Origin: a virus
Taxonomy: Duplodnaviria; Heunggongvirae; Uroviricota; Caudoviricetes
IMG/VR virus record: IMGVR_UViG_3300007734_000754
Span: 1 to 64,000 of that record
Strand: one strand, 5' to 3'
DNA: 64,000 nt
The notes under the pieces: generated by a model
Databases searched by the model: none
What the model was told of the DNA's origin: nothing
Seen by the model: the letters and a program-made list of their open reading frames with translations, nothing else
Shown here: one piece after another, positions 2,357 through 39,621 of the stretch
Position numbering within the stretch: the stretch's first letter is position 1
Layout of the letters: each line of letters begins with the position of its first letter
Position numbers and translations under genes: made by a program

Positions 2357-2626
2357 ATGAATGATAGAGAAGGAACCTTTACCATTGATGAAGGAAAGTC
2401 GAAGAAAGAATTAGTAAATCACCCAAACCATTACGGAGGAAAAGATAATCCCTACGAAGCAATTAAAGTTATTGAAGCTTGGGAGTTAGGTTTCTGTTTA
2501 GGGAATACAGTAAAGTATATTTCAAGAGCCGGAAAGAAAGATGATATAGTACAGGAGCTTGAAAAAGCTTTATGGTATTTAAAAAGAGAAATCAAAAACT
2601 TAAAAGATGGCAAAGAAAATTCTTAA
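2357..2626 (+). CDS. DUF3310-like phage protein
   Basis: HPNHY ... GNTVKYISRAGKK ... LEKALWYLKREI resembles the DUF3310 signature seen in many phages. Confidence 0.45.
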   Translation: MNDREGTFTIDEGKSKKELVNHPNHYGGKDNPYEAIKVIEAWELGFCLGNTVKYISRAGKKDDIVQELEKALWYLKREIKNLKDGKENS

Positions 2627-3548
2627 ACAGGTAAGCCTGGTAAGAGACTTCTGTAAGCCAGTTATAGATTACAACATCAGCAAATCAATATCGTATAGTC
2701 AAACTCTAGCATATAATACTTGTCCGCATCAATGGGCATTGAAGTATGTTAAGGGATTGCAAGAGTATAAGCCTTCCATTCATACAGTTTTTGGTACAGC
2801 AGTACACGAAGTTATGCAGGAATGGTTAACAGAACTTTACGAAGGAACTGTAAAGAAGTCAAATGAAATGGATTTAAGTACCCTACTGTTGGAGAAGATG
2901 CAAACAATTTATGCTCATGAAAAAGATAAGTACGGAAAACATTTCTCTACCTCTCAAGAGTTATCTGAGTTTCATAATGATGGGGTTGAAATCTTAGAGT
3001 ACGTTCGTAAGAAACGCTCTGTTTACTTCGGAACCAAGTACTATAAGCTTGTTGGAGTAGAAATTCCCTTAGTACATAAAATAGCCGAGAATGTTTTCTT
3101 TAAAGGATATATTGATATTGTTCTCTACGATGAGCAGGATAACAAGTATATCATTCTAGATATTAAAACATCAACCTCAGGATGGAATGATTGGGCTAAA
3201 AAGGATGATAAGAAGCTAGCACAATTACTTTTATATAAAGAATTCTTAGCAAGACAGTTTGATATAGATGTCGATAAGGTAGATGTAAAGTATTTTATCG
3301 TTAAAAGAAAAGTACCTGCCAATCCAGAATTTCCTGCAATGGGTAGAAGAGTTCAAGAGTTTGTACCACCTTCAGGAAAGATTAAAAGAGGACAAGCAAC
3401 TACAGCTCTTGCAAAATTTATTGATGATGCTTTTGATTCACATGGAAAATATATTGACAAGGAGTATGATAAGACACCTTCTAAGGTTAATTGTATGTTT
3501 TGTGAATTTAAAGGAACAGAACACTGTCATGCAGGTGTTTTAGGATAG
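2607..3548 (+). CDS. PD-(D/E)XK nuclease, Cas4/RecB-like with Cys cluster
   Basis: GYIDIVLYDE...ILDIKTS (D..D-x-K), QLLLY (QhxxY motif), N-terminal Cys (NTCPHQW) plus C-terminal CMFCEF...HC cluster typical of Cas4-like Fe-S exonucleases. Confidence 0.6.
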   Translation: MAKKILKQVSLVRDFCKPVIDYNISKSISYSQTLAYNTCPHQWALKYVKGLQEYKPSIHTVFGTAVHEVMQEWLTELYEGTVKKSNEMDLSTLLLEKMQTIYAHEKDKYGKHFSTSQELSEFHNDGVEILEYVRKKRSVYFGTKYYKLVGVEIPLVHKIAENVFFKGYIDIVLYDEQDNKYIILDIKTSTSGWNDWAKKDDKKLAQLLLYKEFLARQFDIDVDKVDVKYFIVKRKVPANPEFPAMGRRVQEFVPPSGKIKRGQATTALAKFIDDAFDSHGKYIDKEYDKTPSKVNCMFCEFKGTEHCHAGVLG

Positions 3549-22262: not shown

Positions 22263-23087
22263 ATGTTATCAAAATTCAACACAGGTTTAGATTCTTACCT
22301 TACAAAAGATCAAGTTAGAGCTTTAGCACCAGTAGCATTCGCTACAGAGCCAACTAGTAACAAAGTGAGTGACAAGTACTTACATGTTAACACAGAAACA
22401 ATCATCGACGACTTAGCACAGTTAGGATGGTTACCGGTAACAGCCTCTCAAAGAAAGGCTAGAAAGTCTGATAAGACTACAATCTTCTCCAAGCACATGG
22501 TATCATTTCAAAATCCAGATCTTATGATTAAAGGTAAGAATGGTGATGATGCTTTCCCAAGAATCATTCTAACGAACTCTCATGATGGATTTAATTCATT
22601 CCAGTTCAGAGTTGGTATCTACAGATTAGTCTGTTCAAATGGACTTGTAGTAGCTGACGAAGAATTCTCAGCATTTAGAATCCGTCACAAAGGATATACC
22701 TTTGAAGAATTAAGAGGTGTAGTATCTCAAGCAGTAGCTGATCTTCCAAATAAGGTACAGATCTTAAATCAAATGCAGTTAAGAGAATTAACTCCTGTAG
22801 AGCAAAGACAATTAGCTATCGATGCTATGCAATTGAGAACAAATAGAATCGATGCTGAATGGGATGAAGAAACAATCCAAGACGTTTTAACTCCTACAAG
22901 AGATGCTGATAAAGGAAATGACCTTTGGAAAGTATTTAATGTAATCCAAGAGAAGATTACCCAAGGAGGATACTCAGCAGCATTGAATGGTGCTAAAGTA
23001 AGAAAGGTTAGAAAGATTAAATCATTCGAGAAAGATCTAGAAGTTAATCAAAAGCTATTCAAGTTAGCAACAGCATTAATCAACTAA
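22263..23087 (+). CDS. DUF932-like phage/plasmid protein
   Basis: ILTNSHDGFNSFQFRVGIYRLVCSNG resembles the conserved core of the DUF932/TIGR03299 family. Confidence 0.35.
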   Translation: MLSKFNTGLDSYLTKDQVRALAPVAFATEPTSNKVSDKYLHVNTETIIDDLAQLGWLPVTASQRKARKSDKTTIFSKHMVSFQNPDLMIKGKNGDDAFPRIILTNSHDGFNSFQFRVGIYRLVCSNGLVVADEEFSAFRIRHKGYTFEELRGVVSQAVADLPNKVQILNQMQLRELTPVEQRQLAIDAMQLRTNRIDAEWDEETIQDVLTPTRDADKGNDLWKVFNVIQEKITQGGYSAALNGAKVRKVRKIKSFEKDLEVNQKLFKLATALIN

Positions 23088-24410: not shown

Positions 24411-25250
24411 ATGAAGAAAATTTTAGTTATCGTAGCAGTAGTAGTAGGTATTTTCGCAATGTTTAGTTCATGCGATGTAATCAATGCCGGACACGTAGGA
24501 GTAAAAGTTGATATGTATGGCTCAGGTAAAGGAGTACAGAACGTAACAGCATGTACAGGATGGGTATTTTATAACCCTATCACAACAAAGGTTTATGAGT
24601 TTCCAACTTATATCCAGCATAAGGAGTATAAGAAGACAGAAGATGGAGATAATTCATTCACTGTAAATACTAAGGATGGTTCTGAGTTTAGAGTATCGCC
24701 AATACTAAATTACTCTGTTAATCCAGACAAAGCACCTTCAATCTTTGCAAAATATAGAAGAACGTTACCAGAGTTAGAGGAAGGATTCTTAAAGACAGCA
24801 ATATATGATGCATTCAGATTAGCAACAAATAAGTATACAGCAGAGGAATTAATATCTAATAGAGCAGTATTTGAAGTAGAAGTAAGACGATTGTTATCAA
24901 ATCAAATTACTAAAGAAGGATTTCTCGTTAATCAATTTACATCTAATCTAGAATACCCAGCTTCATTTAAGAATGCCATTAACGCTAAGAATAATGCAGT
25001 ACAAGCCGCGTTAACAGCCGAGAATCAGGTACAAACGGCAACAGCACAAGCTAAGATTAAAGTAGCAACTGCCCAAGGTAATGCCGAAGCATTATTGACA
25101 AATGCAAGAGCTGAGGCTGAGTCAAATAAATTAAGACAGTCTACATTAACAGCAATGCTATTGCAACAACAATGGATTGAGAAGTGGGATGGTGCTTTAC
25201 CAAAGACACAATTGGCATCAGGATCTAATACGATGTACGGCTTAAAGTAA
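24411..25250 (+). CDS. SPFH/band-7 (prohibitin-like) lipoprotein
   Basis: Lipoprotein signal MKKILVIVAVVVGIFAMFSSC followed by SPFH-like sequence (GHVGVKV...). C-terminal Ala/Gln-rich coiled coil. Confidence 0.55.
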   Translation: MKKILVIVAVVVGIFAMFSSCDVINAGHVGVKVDMYGSGKGVQNVTACTGWVFYNPITTKVYEFPTYIQHKEYKKTEDGDNSFTVNTKDGSEFRVSPILNYSVNPDKAPSIFAKYRRTLPELEEGFLKTAIYDAFRLATNKYTAEELISNRAVFEVEVRRLLSNQITKEGFLVNQFTSNLEYPASFKNAINAKNNAVQAALTAENQVQTATAQAKIKVATAQGNAEALLTNARAEAESNKLRQSTLTAMLLQQQWIEKWDGALPKTQLASGSNTMYGLK

Positions 25251-25337
25251 AAATAAATTGAAAATAATTGTAAAAAGGCTTGCTTTGGTAGGCCTTTTTT
25301 CATATATTTAGGTATAGAAATTAAAAAGAGAAAGATT

Positions 25338-26072
25338 ATGCCAAAAATATTTAAAGTAGGAGGATGTGTTAGAGATGGACTTCTAGGAGTAAAGACAAAA
25401 GATATCGACTTCACATTTGTATTAGAGGACCTAAACAAAACAGTTGAAGAAGGATTCAAAGAGATGGAACAATGGATGATAGATCAAGGATTTATAATCT
25501 TTCAATCAGTTCCAGAGATGTTTACAATCAGAGCTAAATTTCCAAGTGATCATAAATTTGCTAAATTGGATGCTGACTTTGTAATGGCTAGAAAAGAAGT
25601 CGGATACGTAGAAGGAACAAGACGTCCAATACTAGAATTAGGAACATTGGAAGATGATTTAGTTCGTAGAGACTTCACAGTCAATGCAATGGCTGAAGAT
25701 GAGGATGGAAATCTAATTGATTTATTTGATGGTATGTGGGCTTTAGAAAATAAGATGCTTCTCACACCTCTTGATCCAGCACAGACATTCTTAGATGATC
25801 CTTTAAGAATGCTAAGAGCACTTAGATTTTCAATCACTAAAGGATTTATAATAGCTCCTAAGGTTTGGGCAGCGATGTTTATTCCAACTCTAATTAATAA
25901 ATTGGAGGAGGTAGTAAGCGGAGAGAGAATAAGAGAGGAAGTTATAAAGATGATGAAAGCAGATACTGTAGCAACTCTACGACTATTGGCTGAAATTGAT
26001 AAAATAGAGCCTAGATTTGTAGAGGCTATATTTGGAAAAGAGATGTGGTTAAAACCAACATTCGAAAACTAG
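25338..26072 (+). CDS. CCA-adding/poly(A) polymerase-family nucleotidyltransferase, head-neck only
   Basis: KVGGCVRDGLLGVKTKDIDF matches the GGxVRDxLLG...DxD head motif. RDFTVNAMA...LID and DPLRMLRALRF match the neck motifs. At 244 aa it lacks the tRNA-binding body/tail. Confidence 0.65.
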   Translation: MPKIFKVGGCVRDGLLGVKTKDIDFTFVLEDLNKTVEEGFKEMEQWMIDQGFIIFQSVPEMFTIRAKFPSDHKFAKLDADFVMARKEVGYVEGTRRPILELGTLEDDLVRRDFTVNAMAEDEDGNLIDLFDGMWALENKMLLTPLDPAQTFLDDPLRMLRALRFSITKGFIIAPKVWAAMFIPTLINKLEEVVSGERIREEVIKMMKADTVATLRLLAEIDKIEPRFVEAIFGKEMWLKPTFEN

Positions 26073-29379: not shown

Positions 29380-29493
29380 TGATTATTATTTGGTTGATAC
29401 TTTTACTAGGAGTAACAAGACATATAGGCTTAAGAGGAGGAAGACAAATTCCAATGCCTCCAAAAAACAAACCTAAAAACAAAAAGGTATGAA
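29377..29493 (+). CDS. 38-aa membrane peptide, translationally coupled on both sides (absent from track)
   Basis: MMIIIWLILLLGVTRHIGLRGGRQIPMPPKNKPKNKKV. ATGA overlaps at both ends. Confidence 0.3.
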
Positions 29494-29869
29494 GCTAGCA
29501 GTAATAGCACACGATGGTAAGAAAGCAGACATGGTAGCTTTCATAATGAAAAGACTTGAGTTTTTTAGTAGAGTAGATATAATTGCTACAGGTACTACAG
29601 GAAGACATATTGAACATGCAGGACTACAAGTTCAATGTTTAAAATCAGGACCATTAGGAGGAGATGCACAAATTGCTTCTATGATAGCAGATGGGCAAGT
29701 TGATGGTGTTATATTTTTTATTGACCCACTAGATGTTCACCCACACCAGGTGGATGTAAATATGCTATTGAGAATTTGTAATGTATACAATATTCCATTG
29801 GCTACCAATTATAAGACAGCAGTTTATGTTATAAATGGATTACAAACAAAATTGAATAAAAAGATATGA
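29489..29869 (+). CDS. mgsA: methylglyoxal synthase (MgsA)-like protein
   Basis: IAHDGKK, ATGTTG, SGPLGGDAQIASMIADGQVDGVIFFIDPL..HPHQVDVNMLLRICNVYNIPLATN align along the whole MgsA fold, including the catalytic Asp (AHD) and His-rich region. Confidence 0.6.
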   Translation: MKLAVIAHDGKKADMVAFIMKRLEFFSRVDIIATGTTGRHIEHAGLQVQCLKSGPLGGDAQIASMIADGQVDGVIFFIDPLDVHPHQVDVNMLLRICNVYNIPLATNYKTAVYVINGLQTKLNKKI

Positions 29870-30126
29870 CCGTAAGAGAACTAATACAAAGTCTAAGTAA
29901 GATAGAAGACCAAGACATAAGAGTAATGGTAAGAGGCTATGAAGGAGGAGTAGATGATATAGTAATAGGAAATGGTATAGATAATAATACTATAGTAATT
30001 CCAGCAATACAGTATGTAGCCTTAGATGTAAATACGGAATGGTATTACGGTACACATGAAATAGTATATAATATGTACGGGGGTATTAATAGCAATTACC
30101 ATATAGTAAAAGCAATAGTTCTATAG
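29866..30126 (+). CDS. hypothetical protein
   Basis: ATGA overlap. Confidence 0.4.
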   Translation: MTVRELIQSLSKIEDQDIRVMVRGYEGGVDDIVIGNGIDNNTIVIPAIQYVALDVNTEWYYGTHEIVYNMYGGINSNYHIVKAIVL

Positions 30127-30660
30127 GCTAGATACCCGTTTGTAACCCGTTCCGATACCCAATTCGTTACCCATTCCATACCCGTTTCTGTCCCCGTTTT
30201 ATACCCGTTTATACATACGTACGTACCTGGAGAGATACATGGAGAGACATAGAGAGAACTACTGAGAAACATAGTAAAAGGTTAATGACTTTGGCTAAAC
30301 ATAAAGAGTAGTAAAGACCTAGGAAGAGTATAAAGACATATAGTACTTGGTATGAAAAGGTACTGTATATGATATACGATGTGTAGTAAAAGGAATAGGC
30401 TAGGGTAGAATTAGTATAGGAAAAATGAGGGGGATGTGCCTCCCTAATAACTTTTCTCTATAATAGGGGTTGTCTATGACTCTATAGACCCGTTCTAGCT
30501 ACCCATTTGTAACCCGTCCCTATAGACGACAGGGAGAGAGTGTAAGGAGAAACCCGGTTTTGGTACCCATTTGTAACCCGTTGATAGACCCGTTCTAGTG
30601 ACCCGTCCGGCTACCCGTTAGAGACCCGTTCTGTAACCCGGGAAAAAACCCAAAAAAGAG
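30127..30660. repeat. noncoding iteron region: about 18 ACCCGTT-like motifs in two clusters phased at about 11 bp, flanking a purine-rich spacer
   Basis: Motif positions: 30134, 30146, 30158, 30170, 30180, 30192, 30203 and 30487, 30501, 30512, 30552, 30566, 30577, 30588, 30601, 30612, 30623, 30634. No ORF longer than 60 aa. Confidence 0.6.
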
Positions 30661-30709
30661 TTGCTAGACTGAAATAAAGTTCTTATCTTTAGGTATCAAT
30701 AAGAAAGAT

Positions 30710-30925
30710 ATGGAAAAACTGATAGAATTAAACGAGGTAGTTGGAAAGGATTGTTCCTGTAATGGATCCCCTACCCTAAGAGCTAAACTGGTTAGTGTGG
30801 GTGAGGAATGGTGTATCCTAGAAATCACTCCAAGGGTATACTCCAGGGATGAATCCAAGGACGTATTTATTGGTAACAGAGTTAGGGTTAGTACATCCTA
30901 TGCCTATAACCTTTATTATGCCTAA
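30710..30925 (+). CDS. hypothetical protein
   Basis: Canonical cassette promoter upstream. Confidence 0.4.
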   Translation: MEKLIELNEVVGKDCSCNGSPTLRAKLVSVGEEWCILEITPRVYSRDESKDVFIGNRVRVSTSYAYNLYYA

Positions 30926-30926
30926 T

Positions 30927-31070
30927 ATGAAAACAATCCAGGTCACTCTCCAGGAGAGGTGGGCAGCCTCCAGGCACAAGGTCCACAAGTCAAAAAAATC
31001 CTACACCAGGAAAAACAAGCACAAAGAAAAAGGGCCCTCCAGGCCCTCTCTTTTTTTCAAAAAAATTTGA
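30927..31070 (+). CDS. possible 47-aa highly basic peptide; alternatively noncoding structured RNA
   Basis: Lys/Arg/His-rich translation. The region is unusually GC-rich with three CTCCAGG repeats and contains the bidirectional terminator. Confidence 0.2.
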   Translation: MKTIQVTLQERWAASRHKVHKSKKSYTRKNKHKEKGPSRPSLFFKKI

Positions 31071-31135
31071 GTATAAGGTACCGGCCCGTCTACTCTTCCG
31101 ACTCTCTTTCAAAGCCAGGCCCCTTATATATCTCC
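31025..31135 (-). ncRNA. candidate small RNA 1 (about 110 nt), minus strand
   Basis: Minus-strand canonical promoter (AGTTGCC, about 20 nt, CGTATCTTTAGGTAC; plus-strand coordinates 31144..31190) points left. Transcript ends at the bidirectional terminator. No ORF. Confidence 0.45.
31032..31060. terminator. bidirectional intrinsic terminator (GGGCC-CTCCA-GGCCC) with A-run upstream and T-run downstream
   Basis: Perfect 5-bp GC stem flanked by A5 on the left and T7 on the right. Confidence 0.6.
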
Positions 31136-31223
31136 CTCTAACGTACCTAAAGATACGAACTATTCTCCATATAGGCAACTTTTTTACAAACTTTTTTTAT
31201 TTTTTTTTTAGACAGCAGAACAT

Positions 31224-31280
31224 GGTGTACCGGACCGTCTACTCTTCCGACAGTATTGCAGTGCCAGGCCCCCTATCTCT
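31224..31280 (-). ncRNA. candidate small RNA 2, minus strand, paralog of sRNA 1
   Basis: Second copy of the GTACCGGnCCGTCTACTCTTCCGAC...GCCAGGCCCC unit with its own minus-strand promoter (TTTG, then CGTATCTTTAGGTA at 31288..31301). 3' end undefined; may read through into sRNA 1. Confidence 0.35.
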
Positions 31281-31433
31281 TTGATAGTACCTAAAGATAC
31301 GGAGAATAATTCATACTACAAACTTTTTTAGTAACTTTTTTTTAATTTATAATGAGTATAAATAACGAAATAAAGTTGGAGCCTATTATCTTATTTCCTA
31401 TCTTTAGGTATCAATAATTAAAACATAGAAAAT

Positions 31434-37910: not shown

Positions 37911-38111
37911 ATGAAAGAGTTTTTCCAAGCACAGTTTAAAATGTTGGACAGAGGATTAGTAGCAACTCCAAACACAAGAGAAGATCTTGAAGCGTTTGCT
38001 AAAGCCAATAATGGTTCAATGGACATCTTACTAATGCAAATGGCTATCAACTATGGTTACAAGATAGCATTAGAGAATGTTCAAGAGGAGTTGGAGAAGG
38101 AGGTAGCATAA
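37911..38111 (+). CDS. hypothetical protein
   Basis: Own promoter. Followed by an overlapping gene. Confidence 0.45.
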   Translation: MKEFFQAQFKMLDRGLVATPNTREDLEAFAKANNGSMDILLMQMAINYGYKIALENVQEELEKEVA

Positions 38112-38338
38112 TGGCAGAGTATGATTTAAGAGGTAGCTGGACAAAGAAGCCCAAAGAGGCTTCTAAGTCCTTCTCTCCAATGATTGGAATGGTCTATGAG
38201 GGTAAGGATAAGTTCTTTGGTAAGATGGTGCTAGGTATCTTAATCGAGATGTTTGATCAGAACGATGAAGCAGTCCTAAGATGTAGAGGAGGAGTATTAG
38301 TCTCAGTCGATAAAAAAAGTTTAAAAATAGTTGCCTAA
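38111..38338 (+). CDS. hypothetical protein
   Basis: ATGG overlap with the upstream gene. Confidence 0.4.
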   Translation: MAEYDLRGSWTKKPKEASKSFSPMIGMVYEGKDKFFGKMVLGILIEMFDQNDEAVLRCRGGVLVSVDKKSLKIVA

Positions 38339-38389
38339 TTGAATAAAGGTTCGTATATTTAGGTATCAATAATTAAAACATATAACATT

Positions 38390-38662
38390 ATGACAAGAGA
38401 ACAATTTTTAAACGGGACAACATTTAGAGTAGGCTTTTTATCCTACAAAGGAGCAGAGACTTATTCGTACAATGCAAAAGACAACTACATGTCTAAACAA
38501 GTAAGGTCTTCTATAGATGAGAAGATAATCTTAGATGATTATGTTTGTAATGTAACAAAGGTAGGTAGATTAGGATTTGAAGGTTTTGTTCACGTAATGA
38601 AAAAGAAAGTAGTTGTTAAGTATAAGTTTGAAGACTTAGTAGAATTTAAAGAGGGGGTTTAA
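38390..38662 (+). CDS. hypothetical protein (last cassette gene)
   Basis: Own promoter. Stop codon embedded in the terminator hairpin. Confidence 0.45.
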   Translation: MTREQFLNGTTFRVGFLSYKGAETYSYNAKDNYMSKQVRSSIDEKIILDDYVCNVTKVGRLGFEGFVHVMKKKVVVKYKFEDLVEFKEGV

Positions 38663-38685
38663 GCCCCCTTCTTTTTTAATAGGCA
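38649..38685 (+). terminator. intrinsic terminator (ggggg-tttaa-gccccc + T-run)
   Basis: GC stem followed by TTCTTTTTT. Confidence 0.55.
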
Positions 38686-38699
38686 ACTTGTCTAGGAAC

Positions 38700-38850
38700 T
38701 TTTTTTTTCTTATCTTTAGGCCGAGGTCAAGGTGATGTCAAGGTGACAGAAAGTTGACAGTTAATTTCCCTCACGGTGACCGGTATCGGGTTTCGCTGGT
38801 TTGTATGAGAAATCTATTTCTGACGATTTTTGAGGTATAGTAATATATAT
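38700..38850 (+). ncRNA. promoter-driven ORF-less transcript with direct repeats (candidate sRNA or antisense RNA)
   Basis: Canonical -7 box CTTATCTTTAGG is followed not by the usual leader and ATG but by GTCAAGGTGA x2, GTTGACAG, GGTGACCGG. Longest ORF is 11 aa. Convergent with the minus-strand gene. Confidence 0.35.
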
Positions 38851-38861
38851 TTATATACTGA

Positions 38862-39080
38862 TCAACCATACCTCTTATCAACGTATTTTTTTATATAAGT
38901 ATTCAACCCCAATCCCCTCTGTGCTAGTCTTTTCATCATCTCTACATGATTTCTACCCGCCCTTGCATATGTGTATTTATACACCATTCCATTTGTCTTA
39001 AACTGTACAGATATAAAGTCCAGTCCTATTACAAAGGCATAGACAGATGATCTTCGACTTATATTTTTATATACTTCCAT
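38862..39080 (-). CDS. KTSC-domain-like protein (only clear minus-strand gene)
   Basis: LDFISVQFKTNGMVYKYTYARAG...LGLNTYIKKYV resembles the KTSC consensus (TLEVEFKNGSVYRY...YFN.NIRGKY). Confidence 0.4.
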   Translation of the reverse strand: MEVYKNISRRSSVYAFVIGLDFISVQFKTNGMVYKYTYARAGRNHVEMMKRLAQRGLGLNTYIKKYVDKRYG

Positions 39081-39192
39081 ATTAATAAATAATTGCCAGA
39101 CTACTTTTTGTGATATTTATCAGAAAAACCGTAATTTTTTTTCCGGCAAATTTTTACTATATTAAGGTTATATATTTATATAAAAAAGTAAT

Positions 39193-39621
39193 ATGAAAGT
39201 TCTTGATAGCGGATCATTGTTCTCTATATTTGAACAAGCAGATGAGGAGGTCTTTAAAGAGGGTGGAGTAGATACTGTTCTTGATAATGACTTTATACTA
39301 CTAGGTACCGTTATAAAAGGGGTAGAGAATTACTACATTATTGATCAGCTATATTCTTTCAGGTATGGAGAACAGTATCTCTCCACAAGGGAATCTATAA
39401 AGTTAAAGTACTTTACCGGACTCTTAAGATATATGGAGAGAATTGATGAGATACAGTCAGATACGCTTTTAGCACTTAAAGAAGAGTTAGGTATTCAATC
39501 TATAAATTATGCATTACAGGAACTACTATCTTTTTTTGAAGAAGTAGAACAGTACGAGCATTGTGCTAGAATTTTCAAATATATTGAACTTTTTTCACTA
39601 AAAGAGTTGGTAGTTCGCTAA
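39193..39621 (+). CDS. hypothetical protein
   Basis: Preceded by TATATTTATATAAAA. Confidence 0.4.
   Translation: MKVLDSGSLFSIFEQADEEVFKEGGVDTVLDNDFILLGTVIKGVENYYIIDQLYSFRYGEQYLSTRESIKLKYFTGLLRYMERIDEIQSDTLLALKEELGIQSINYALQELLSFFEEVEQYEHCARIFKYIELFSLKELVVR

Follow-up and report, generated by a model that had tools for sequence, protein, structure and literature searches.

The window analysed here, a stretch of 64 kb of viral DNA, holds a non-coding gap of about 530 bp that is bounded by ORF 29866-30126 and ORF 30710-30925 and contains every exact ACCCGTT of the window. Two arrays of short direct repeats lie in the gap on either side of a conserved core and are followed by an early promoter. 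The features of the element and of this promoter are as follows:

30134..30212, + strand: array 1, seven head-to-tail units of the form (A/T)N-ACCCGTT-(T/C), with the variants ACCCAAT, ACCCATT and CCCCGTT
30213..30487, + strand: conserved non-coding core; its conserved anchors are about 261 bp apart, and most relatives have 259-261 bp
30228..30275, + strand: weaker periodic series in the left part of the core, GGAGAGAnAnA-type units with a period of about 11-12 bp (lag-12 z = 4.6)
30340..30366, no strand: inverted repeat ATAGTAC-N13-GTACTGT, located where the core is best conserved (30318-30390, median identity 92%)
30420..30461, no strand: A-run, GC hairpin (30428-30445) and T-rich run at the right edge of the core, terminator-like
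30488..30520, + strand: array 2a, three units (ACCCGTT, ACCCATT, ACCCGTC)
30552..30642, + strand: array 2b, seven units and one degenerate unit (ACCCGGG at 30636)
30649..30709, + strand: early promoter after array 2b, with an A-tract, GTTGC (30660-30664), N19, TTATCTTTAGGTAT (-7 box, 30683-30696), a leader and the ATG at 30710

Repeat units and their spacing

Exact ACCCGTT was found nine times in the 64-kb window, in all nine cases on the + strand and within 30134-30624. When variants were included, 17-18 units were counted in two blocks (30134-30212 and 30488-30642), which bears out the estimate of about 18 ACCCGTT-type copies in two clusters given in an earlier note on this DNA; the minus strand carries no unit. 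Motif frequency was compared with that in 100 dinucleotide shuffles, the check that the earlier note had named, and none of the shuffles reached nine copies (mean 1.97, maximum 7).

Array 1 begins 8 nt past the stop codon of ORF 29866-30126, and its seven units start at 30134, 30145, 30157, 30169, 30180, 30192 and 30203, at spacings of 11, 12, 12, 11, 12 and 11 bp. The second block comprises 10 units and a degenerate one, divided 3 + 7 by a 40-nt insert (30521-30551) that only some relatives have. Units start at 30488, 30501 and 30512 before this interruption (spacings 13 and 11 bp) and at 30552, 30565, 30576, 30588, 30601, 30613 and 30624 after it, with the degenerate unit at 30636 (spacings 13, 11, 12, 13, 12, 11 and, to the degenerate unit, 12 bp).

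Autocorrelation analysis gave peaks at lags 11-12 for array 1 (z 5.6-5.7) and at lags 11-13 for array 2 (z 2.5-4.1). The spacings pooled from 25 related loci were 11 bp in 110 cases, 12 bp in 157 and 13 bp in 64, with a mean of 11.9 bp. The periodicity described previously is therefore real, but the spacing is 11-13 bp and not "almost exactly 11 bp". Taking 10.5 bp per turn, each unit is rotated by about 45 degrees against the one before it; at a period of about 12 bp the units do not lie on one face of relaxed B-DNA. The proposal that all copies fall on one helix face is contradicted by this period, which is about 12 bp rather than 10.5-11 bp.

The unit logo derived from the 25 loci reads (A/T)N-A-C-C-C-G-T-T-(T/C), with core positions conserved to 80-100% and spacers that are near-random. 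This combination is, at the level of sequence, the signature of selection on binding sites and not of recent duplication. A cluster of Chi-like recombination hotspots was also considered and rejected, as the motif occurs 71 times in 0.9 Mb of Flavobacteriaceae DNA against 65 expected, without enrichment. A literature search for ACCCGTT/AACGGGT returned nothing relevant.

Phage identity and conservation of the element

The window matches Flavobacterium phage vB_FspM_immuto (MW353175; in the following immuto), a myovirus of 160,410 bp in the genus Immutovirus, and is syntenic with 43-106 kb of its genome at protein identities of 45-92%. All genes are located on one strand, and the replisome consists of PolA, DnaB, DnaG, SSB and a RecA-like protein. 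Immuto has a large terminase homologous to T4 gp17 (PDB 3ezk, E = 2.5e-38), which groups with about 2,500 T4-superfamily records, and its annotation includes a gp20-like portal and a gp23-like capsid protein. The same element layout is present in immuto at 66.3-66.9 kb, and the array occurs at this one place in the 160,410-bp genome, which has no other 7-mer array of its type.

Relatives were collected from IMG/VR and metagenomes using a pattern from the centre of the element. This yielded 47 phage-type loci, of which 37 were non-identical and 25 carried the complete element. The order of array 1 (4-8 units), core, array 2 (8-14 units) and early promoter was found in 25 of 25 complete loci, often with a GC hairpin and an A-tract between array 2 and the promoter. 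Overall, none of the approximately 50 related phage loci, which were recovered from freshwater and marine samples, lacked the element. The flanking genes behave like exchangeable cassettes: the gene for the upstream 86-aa protein was found in 26 of 36 loci, and conservation does not extend to the first gene downstream. A search for mini-replicons or satellites with the element found no small circular contigs. A BLAST search of PLSDB (72,556 plasmids) gave no similar array and no plasmid iteron or centromere relative.

The genes further upstream of the element (24411-26072 and 22263-23087) encode an SPFH/Band-7 protein, a nucleotidyltransferase of the poly(A)-polymerase/CCA-adding type and a DUF932 protein, the last being 92% identical to its immuto counterpart; a protein with an MGS-like domain is encoded at 29489-29869. 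Furthermore, immuto encodes DpdA together with QueC, QueD, QueE, QueF and FolE at 18.6-37 kb, and from these genes 7-deazaguanine modifications are probably present in its DNA. A repeat unit contains a single G on the + strand and a GGG run on the - strand.

The core between the arrays

The core has a median identity of 83% across 36 related loci and of 92% in 30318-30390. The arms of its inverted repeat as well as an ATGTGTA motif and a CTATA(T/A)AG motif are present in both array classes described below. At the right edge, the A-run, hairpin and T-run at 30420-30461 look, from their sequence, like a bidirectional intrinsic terminator, and the stem of the 30428-30445 hairpin differs in sequence among relatives. 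Both the ACGTACGTAC palindrome (30217-30226) and the GAGAGA runs (30228-30275) that had been pointed out in the central segment are there, but the palindrome is not conserved in relatives. The same segment had been described as purine-rich; its purine content is 62% compared with a window mean of 57% (sd 3.7), which is only a modest bias at the 93rd percentile.

In the nearest-neighbour stability profile no AT-rich unwinding region was detected in the element; the arrays rank within the top 0-5% of 40-bp windows for stability, and the stability of the core is average. No TTATCCACA-like DnaA box (up to one mismatch) was present in 30100-30700, nor were DnaA boxes enriched across the window, and neither the early nor the late promoter motif was found within the core or the rest of the element.

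A hidden ORF in the core is ruled out by stop codons in all frames and by length differences of 1-2 nt among relatives, and no conserved ORF was found there. A structured non-coding RNA was likewise rejected, as there was no match in Rfam and almost no consensus structure on either strand. RNAalifold predicted -7.5 kcal/mol for the + strand and -4.8 kcal/mol for the - strand of the core (275 nt), with ATAGTAC-N13-GTACTGT as the sole short hairpin.

These results bear on a possible role at the level of RNA, in which the C-rich and G-poor transcribed repeats would load Rho in the manner of a rut tract or would be bound by an RNA-binding protein, or the core would be a non-coding RNA. Such a role would fit the location of every unit on the transcribed strand and the period of about 12 nt with one CCC patch per unit, which is like the spacing of Rho primary sites, and the terminator-like hairpin would close a purine-rich transcript of about 230 nt. 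It is nevertheless very improbable, since the core lacks an Rfam match and a conserved secondary structure, the element contains no early or late promoter motif, and the full heptamer, including the G and the TT, is conserved and switches together to AACCGWT in other phages, which Rho would not need. In immuto, moreover, an intrinsic terminator is located directly upstream of array 1 and no recognisable promoter follows it. Because the core is unstructured as RNA and array 1 of immuto is preceded by this terminator, a role at the level of DNA is favoured.

Some relatives accept 45-bp hairpin insertions at two different positions of the element, so the exact spacing between array 1 and the core is not critical. 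The hairpin-containing 45-bp insertion (ATCGTAGATTGAGAAACAGAGTATCTCACCTACTCTGTCTTCGAC) was observed in L001 (5082-5126; immuto 66.4 kb), L129 and L134 at differing positions within the element; there are two copies in L134, and it is single-copy in the immuto genome. A second hairpin insert of about 33 nt (CGGCGAAGCCTGAGCAGGCTCC...) is located upstream of array 1 in L015 and within array 1 in L134. Both look like miniature mobile inserts aimed at the element locus.

The 23-nt centre of the core inverted repeat (30342-30364, AGTACTNNGTANNAAAAGGTACT) resembles a promoter-upstream element of Flavobacteriaceae chromosomes. It matches more than 120 chromosomal contigs of this family (loci L225-L344), among them Aquimarina, Maribacter and Cellulophaga, and the chromosomal copies are always located directly upstream of the ECF-sigma-like promoter GTAAC-N17-CGTCT. 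In Aquimarina this promoter drives 4-5 tandem genes for 28-aa peptides (MRTLDSNQITKKLNNTNGNIWNNKRRYR). No Rfam family was found for the chromosomal element. Mimicry of a host operator by the palindrome was considered in view of the striking likeness, but was discarded, as phages of the second array class do not keep the matching half.

Early promoters and transcriptional context

The early promoters have a very strong consensus, AAAAAGTTGC-N19-TTC(G/T)TAT(A/C)TTTAGGTAT, followed by a conserved leader. On the + strand 31 of them were found between 19.4 and 39.6 kb; these copies at 19400-39650 are near-identical (AAAAAGTTGC-N19-TTCGTATATTTAGGTATCAATAATTAAAACATATAA) and number about one per small ORF. 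The element is thus located within the early region, between co-oriented transcription units, and the promoter with the -7 box at 30683-30696 is the first of about 27 early promoters that follow one another in a dense series. The structural genes of immuto are preceded by a different, late motif, (C/A)TATTTATAA.

The distance from the last unit to this promoter is not conserved among relatives and ACCCGTT-type units are absent from the other 30 early promoters, which disfavours a role of the arrays as simple activator sites. A wider regulatory function was also weighed, in which a phage protein coats the arrays and, together with the hairpin of the core, blocks read-through or times the dense block of early genes. 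The position between co-oriented transcription units and directly upstream of the first of the roughly 27 dense promoters is suggestive of such a boundary, as is the terminator-like A-run, hairpin and T-run at the right edge of the core, and repressor/operator pairs are well known to evolve specificity classes too. On the other hand, early promoters are located upstream of the element as well and none of the other 30 carries the units; the distance from the last unit to the -33 box varies, with GC hairpins or inserts between them in relatives; and about 18 sites are many more than known operators require. A transcriptional boundary or regulator is considered unlikely.

Early promoters on the minus strand were limited to two copies (about 31190 and 31333), which face left toward a bidirectional terminator at 31027-31051 and which, judging by their placement, would give short RNAs antisense to the tiny ORF 30927-31070. 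This ORF (MKTIQVTLQERWAAS...) encodes a very basic product and is conserved in both array classes. CTCCAGG/CCTGG motifs occur 4-5 times in 30927-31433. Many IMG/VR contigs stop 0.2-1.6 kb downstream of the element, probably because the early-promoter repeats break the assemblies.

A second specificity class

Using relatives of the upstream 86-aa protein and follow-up scans, five loci (L359/L424, L361, L434, L448 and L485) were reached that have the same architecture and a second class of units. Every unit in these loci is AACCG(T/A)T(T), and ACCCGT is absent from all five. Of 52 intervals between units, 42 measure exactly 12 bp. The downstream tiny ORF and the promoter type are shared with class 1. 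Two flanking proteins of the class-2 phages are 80% and 84% identical to those of the window phage, while the immuto proteins are 78% and 85% identical, so immuto is no closer to the window phage than the class-2 phages are; their DnaB is 92-94% identical to that of immuto.

The units of the two classes differ by one or two bases each. That about 20 sites changed in concert while the architecture and the remaining genome were kept points to a sequence-specific binding protein that would co-evolve with its sites, and such a switch of units is hard to explain otherwise. Specificity classes of this kind are seen for initiator/iteron, ParR/parC and repressor/operator pairs. The sequences show that the array is genuine and has no second copy in the genome, and that its units are maintained by purifying selection and co-evolve as a group.

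Search for the binding protein

About 50 ORFs around the element (18.5-40 kb) were scanned with Pfam and PHROGs, and no helix-turn-helix, ribbon-helix-helix, initiator or other DNA-binding domain was detected. This agrees with the previous statement that no gene of the window is assignable as the binding protein. The two classes provide built-in controls for finding this protein, and the candidates were judged accordingly. The upstream 86-aa protein was dismissed because immuto has the array and lacks the gene. For the tiny basic ORF 30927-31070, the N-terminal residues of the product do not follow the array classes, as far as sequences read by eye can tell. The genes of the 21-kb replication module are 85-97% identical between classes and none of them sorts by class.

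The extra genes in the replication module of class-2 phages encode GIY-YIG homing endonucleases. These GIY-YIG/NUMOD genes are located at 6359-6985 in L507 and at 2438-3154 and 5394-6164 in L517, and are missing at the equivalent site (151-aa ORF to SSB) in immuto and in the class-1 contig L504.

A class-specific protein encoded upstream of TerL was rejected as well, given that the hypervariable 350-aa protein found there varies as much within class 1 as between classes. This protein of about 350 aa (L567 3515-4576, L590 3970-5019, L593 3213-4292) has an almost invariant N-terminus of 40 aa (MSVVDKIV.EWAFRCKKGYPDMNNPDDMKILKEIYS) and a hypervariable remainder. It contains a GxGKGE...D...E.K motif resembling PD-(D/E)xK nucleases, and diverges strongly even among close relatives. 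Three small early genes (37911-38662) stay candidates, being conserved with immuto and divergent or absent in the class-2 locus L448; no DNA-binding features were found in them.

Comparison with known systems

The element belongs to the known class of repeat-array cis elements, and its two natural specificity classes add to its interest. In form alone, its closest analogues would be R1 parC, the iteron sets of P1 and F, and the heptamer array beside the terminal repeat of T7.

Iteron origins and control loci (P1 oriR/incC and incA, F ori2, R6K gamma, lambda ori, P4 ori/crr) have clusters of direct repeats in the same orientation in common with the element, often in two clusters and with one locus per replicon. 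Their repeats co-vary with the cognate initiator, which gives rise to classes; the element likewise has two motif classes, whereas no protein was found to sort by class. Iterons are 17-22 bp long at a period of about 22 bp, in contrast to the 7-bp core at a 12-bp period seen here. Unlike the iteron loci, the element is without an adjacent AT-rich unwinding region and without DnaA or IHF boxes, and no initiator gene is located between or beside the arrays, the segment between them being the conserved non-coding 260 bp and not a rep gene.

Clusters of direct repeats have been reported at T4 oriE and at plasmid origins (PMC3016281). T4 and the window phage belong to the same superfamily, and the "12-nt iterons" of oriE were considered as a homologue and set aside; they are located inside gene 5, coincide with coding repeats of 24 nt and have no sequence similarity to the units. 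According to the same review they have no established link to origin activity (PMC3016281).

The centromere-like site parC of plasmid R1 and the element both consist of two one-orientation sets of short direct repeats (about 11 bp) around a central region, and by analogy cooperative coating by a small adaptor would be the expected mode of binding in both cases. In R1 parC, 5 + 5 repeats lie on either side of a core promoter of 39 bp, and parM-parR follow directly. In the element, 7 + about 10 units surround 260 bp; no promoter is recognisable there, par genes are absent, and the phage is a virulent-looking one of 160 kb. A partition or positioning site of this type, at which an adaptor on the direct repeats would link the phage DNA to a cytomotive system or an anchor, as might happen in a carrier state, is an improbable reading and was kept for three reasons: the two sets of 11-12-bp repeats in the same orientation, a period above 10.5 bp that suits a wrapped or superhelical adaptor complex, and the established occurrence of specificity classes in partition systems. 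ParM, ParA, TubZ and ribbon-helix-helix genes were not detected beside the element or in the immuto annotation, however, the centre is without an early or late promoter motif, none of the 72,556 plasmids has a similar array, and the annotation, with neither an integrase nor plasmid-maintenance genes, suggests a virulent phage.

The layout of T7 was checked directly and consists of a 160-bp terminal repeat, about 12 CCTAAAG heptamers at a 13-bp period, and early promoters. Both phages have a heptamer array directly before the early promoters; in T7, fewer copies are located on the far side of a 160-bp unique segment. No established function is known for the T7 short repeats. T7 has its own type of terminase and defined genome ends, as opposed to the T4 gp17-type terminase of the window phage.

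The similarity in form to the T7 layout (terminal repeat, heptamer array, early promoters) is one of the points in favour of a packaging or genome-end signal, either as small-terminase sites flanking a cleavage region (as in the pac sites of P1 and SPP1) or as repeat blocks like those of the T7 junction. The others are that two repeat clusters around a central region resemble P1 pac, and that the element is single-copy in the genome. This signal has a low probability all the same. The T4 gp17-type TerL together with gp20 and gp23 implies headful packaging without fixed ends, the element is located about 53 kb from terL, where a pac site would be expected in or near terS, and the proteins encoded upstream of TerL do not sort by array class. 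The ends of metagenomic contigs near the element are scattered, with no stack at one position, and are better accounted for by the repeated promoters of about 50 nt. The T7-like terminal-repeat junction was down-weighted specifically in view of the TerL type and the scattered contig ends. A search for literature on the genome termini of immuto found no paper.

A probable protein-binding platform and possible replication origin

Taken as a whole, the element is very probably a cis-acting protein-binding platform. It would be a single-copy assembly site for a sequence-specific DNA-binding protein, probably encoded by the phage, which may bind head-to-tail with one protomer or dimer per unit of about 12 bp. 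Polar filaments or wraps, one of about 7 and one of about 10 units, would then lie on the two sides of the conserved 260-bp core, which carries the palindromic site and the terminator-like hairpin. Because the period of 11.9 bp exceeds the repeat of B-DNA, a protein array of regular spacing would require the DNA to be underwound or wrapped into a superhelix. From the sequence we infer protein binding, its stoichiometry and the distortion of DNA at the arrays.

As to function, the first choice is an iteron-type origin or control locus of replication, because the locus is unique, the direct repeats are iteron-like and come in classes, the position is within the early region, and the phage itself encodes a DnaB-type replisome. 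The link to replication is one that we infer, and this assignment is tentative, with somewhat less than an even chance of being correct. Phages with a replisome of the PolA/DnaB/DnaG/SSB type usually use a defined origin. As the element is located in a region that is transcribed early, early transcription and the initiator could act together. A classical iteron origin is weakened by the missing AT-rich unwinding region and DnaA boxes, and the origin reading in general is weakened by the initiator not having been found and by 7-bp units at a 12-bp period that are far shorter than classical iterons of 17-22 bp. No switch in GC skew was found at the locus, which is uninformative for an origin because all genes are on one strand.

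A more far-reaching proposal is that the element and its binding protein form a previously undescribed module of replicon identity in phages. Bipartite heptamers phased at 12 bp would wrap or underwind DNA around a conserved core with a host-like palindromic site; at least two mutually exclusive classes (ACCCGTT and AACCGWT) would exist among co-occurring aquatic Flavobacterium phages; the module might act as a determinant of incompatibility or against cheating in co-infection; and the fold of the binding protein would be missing from current domain libraries. As a joint reading of DNA wrapping, exclusive classes, an incompatibility role and a new fold, this is doubtful.

Cis-acting sites, origins included, are essentially unmapped in Bacteroidota phages and distant relatives of T4. 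The element is experimentally tractable, being single-copy, present in all of the approximately 50 loci, easily recognised and available in two natural classes. If it is an origin, it would provide a handle for the engineering of Flavobacterium phages of the immuto type; if it is an incompatibility-type module, it bears on the competition of close phages inside one cell.

The far end of the early block holds a second non-coding gap of about 530 bp (38662-39193), which is AT-rich, has its own early promoter and competes with the element as a candidate origin; it is regarded as an alternative candidate origin or as a candidate non-coding RNA. Its early-type promoter (about 38676-38722) is directed into ORF-free sequence, and the gap contains two tandem copies of GTCAAGGTGA and three AT-rich copies of TATATATTTATATAC, with an anomalous AT skew.
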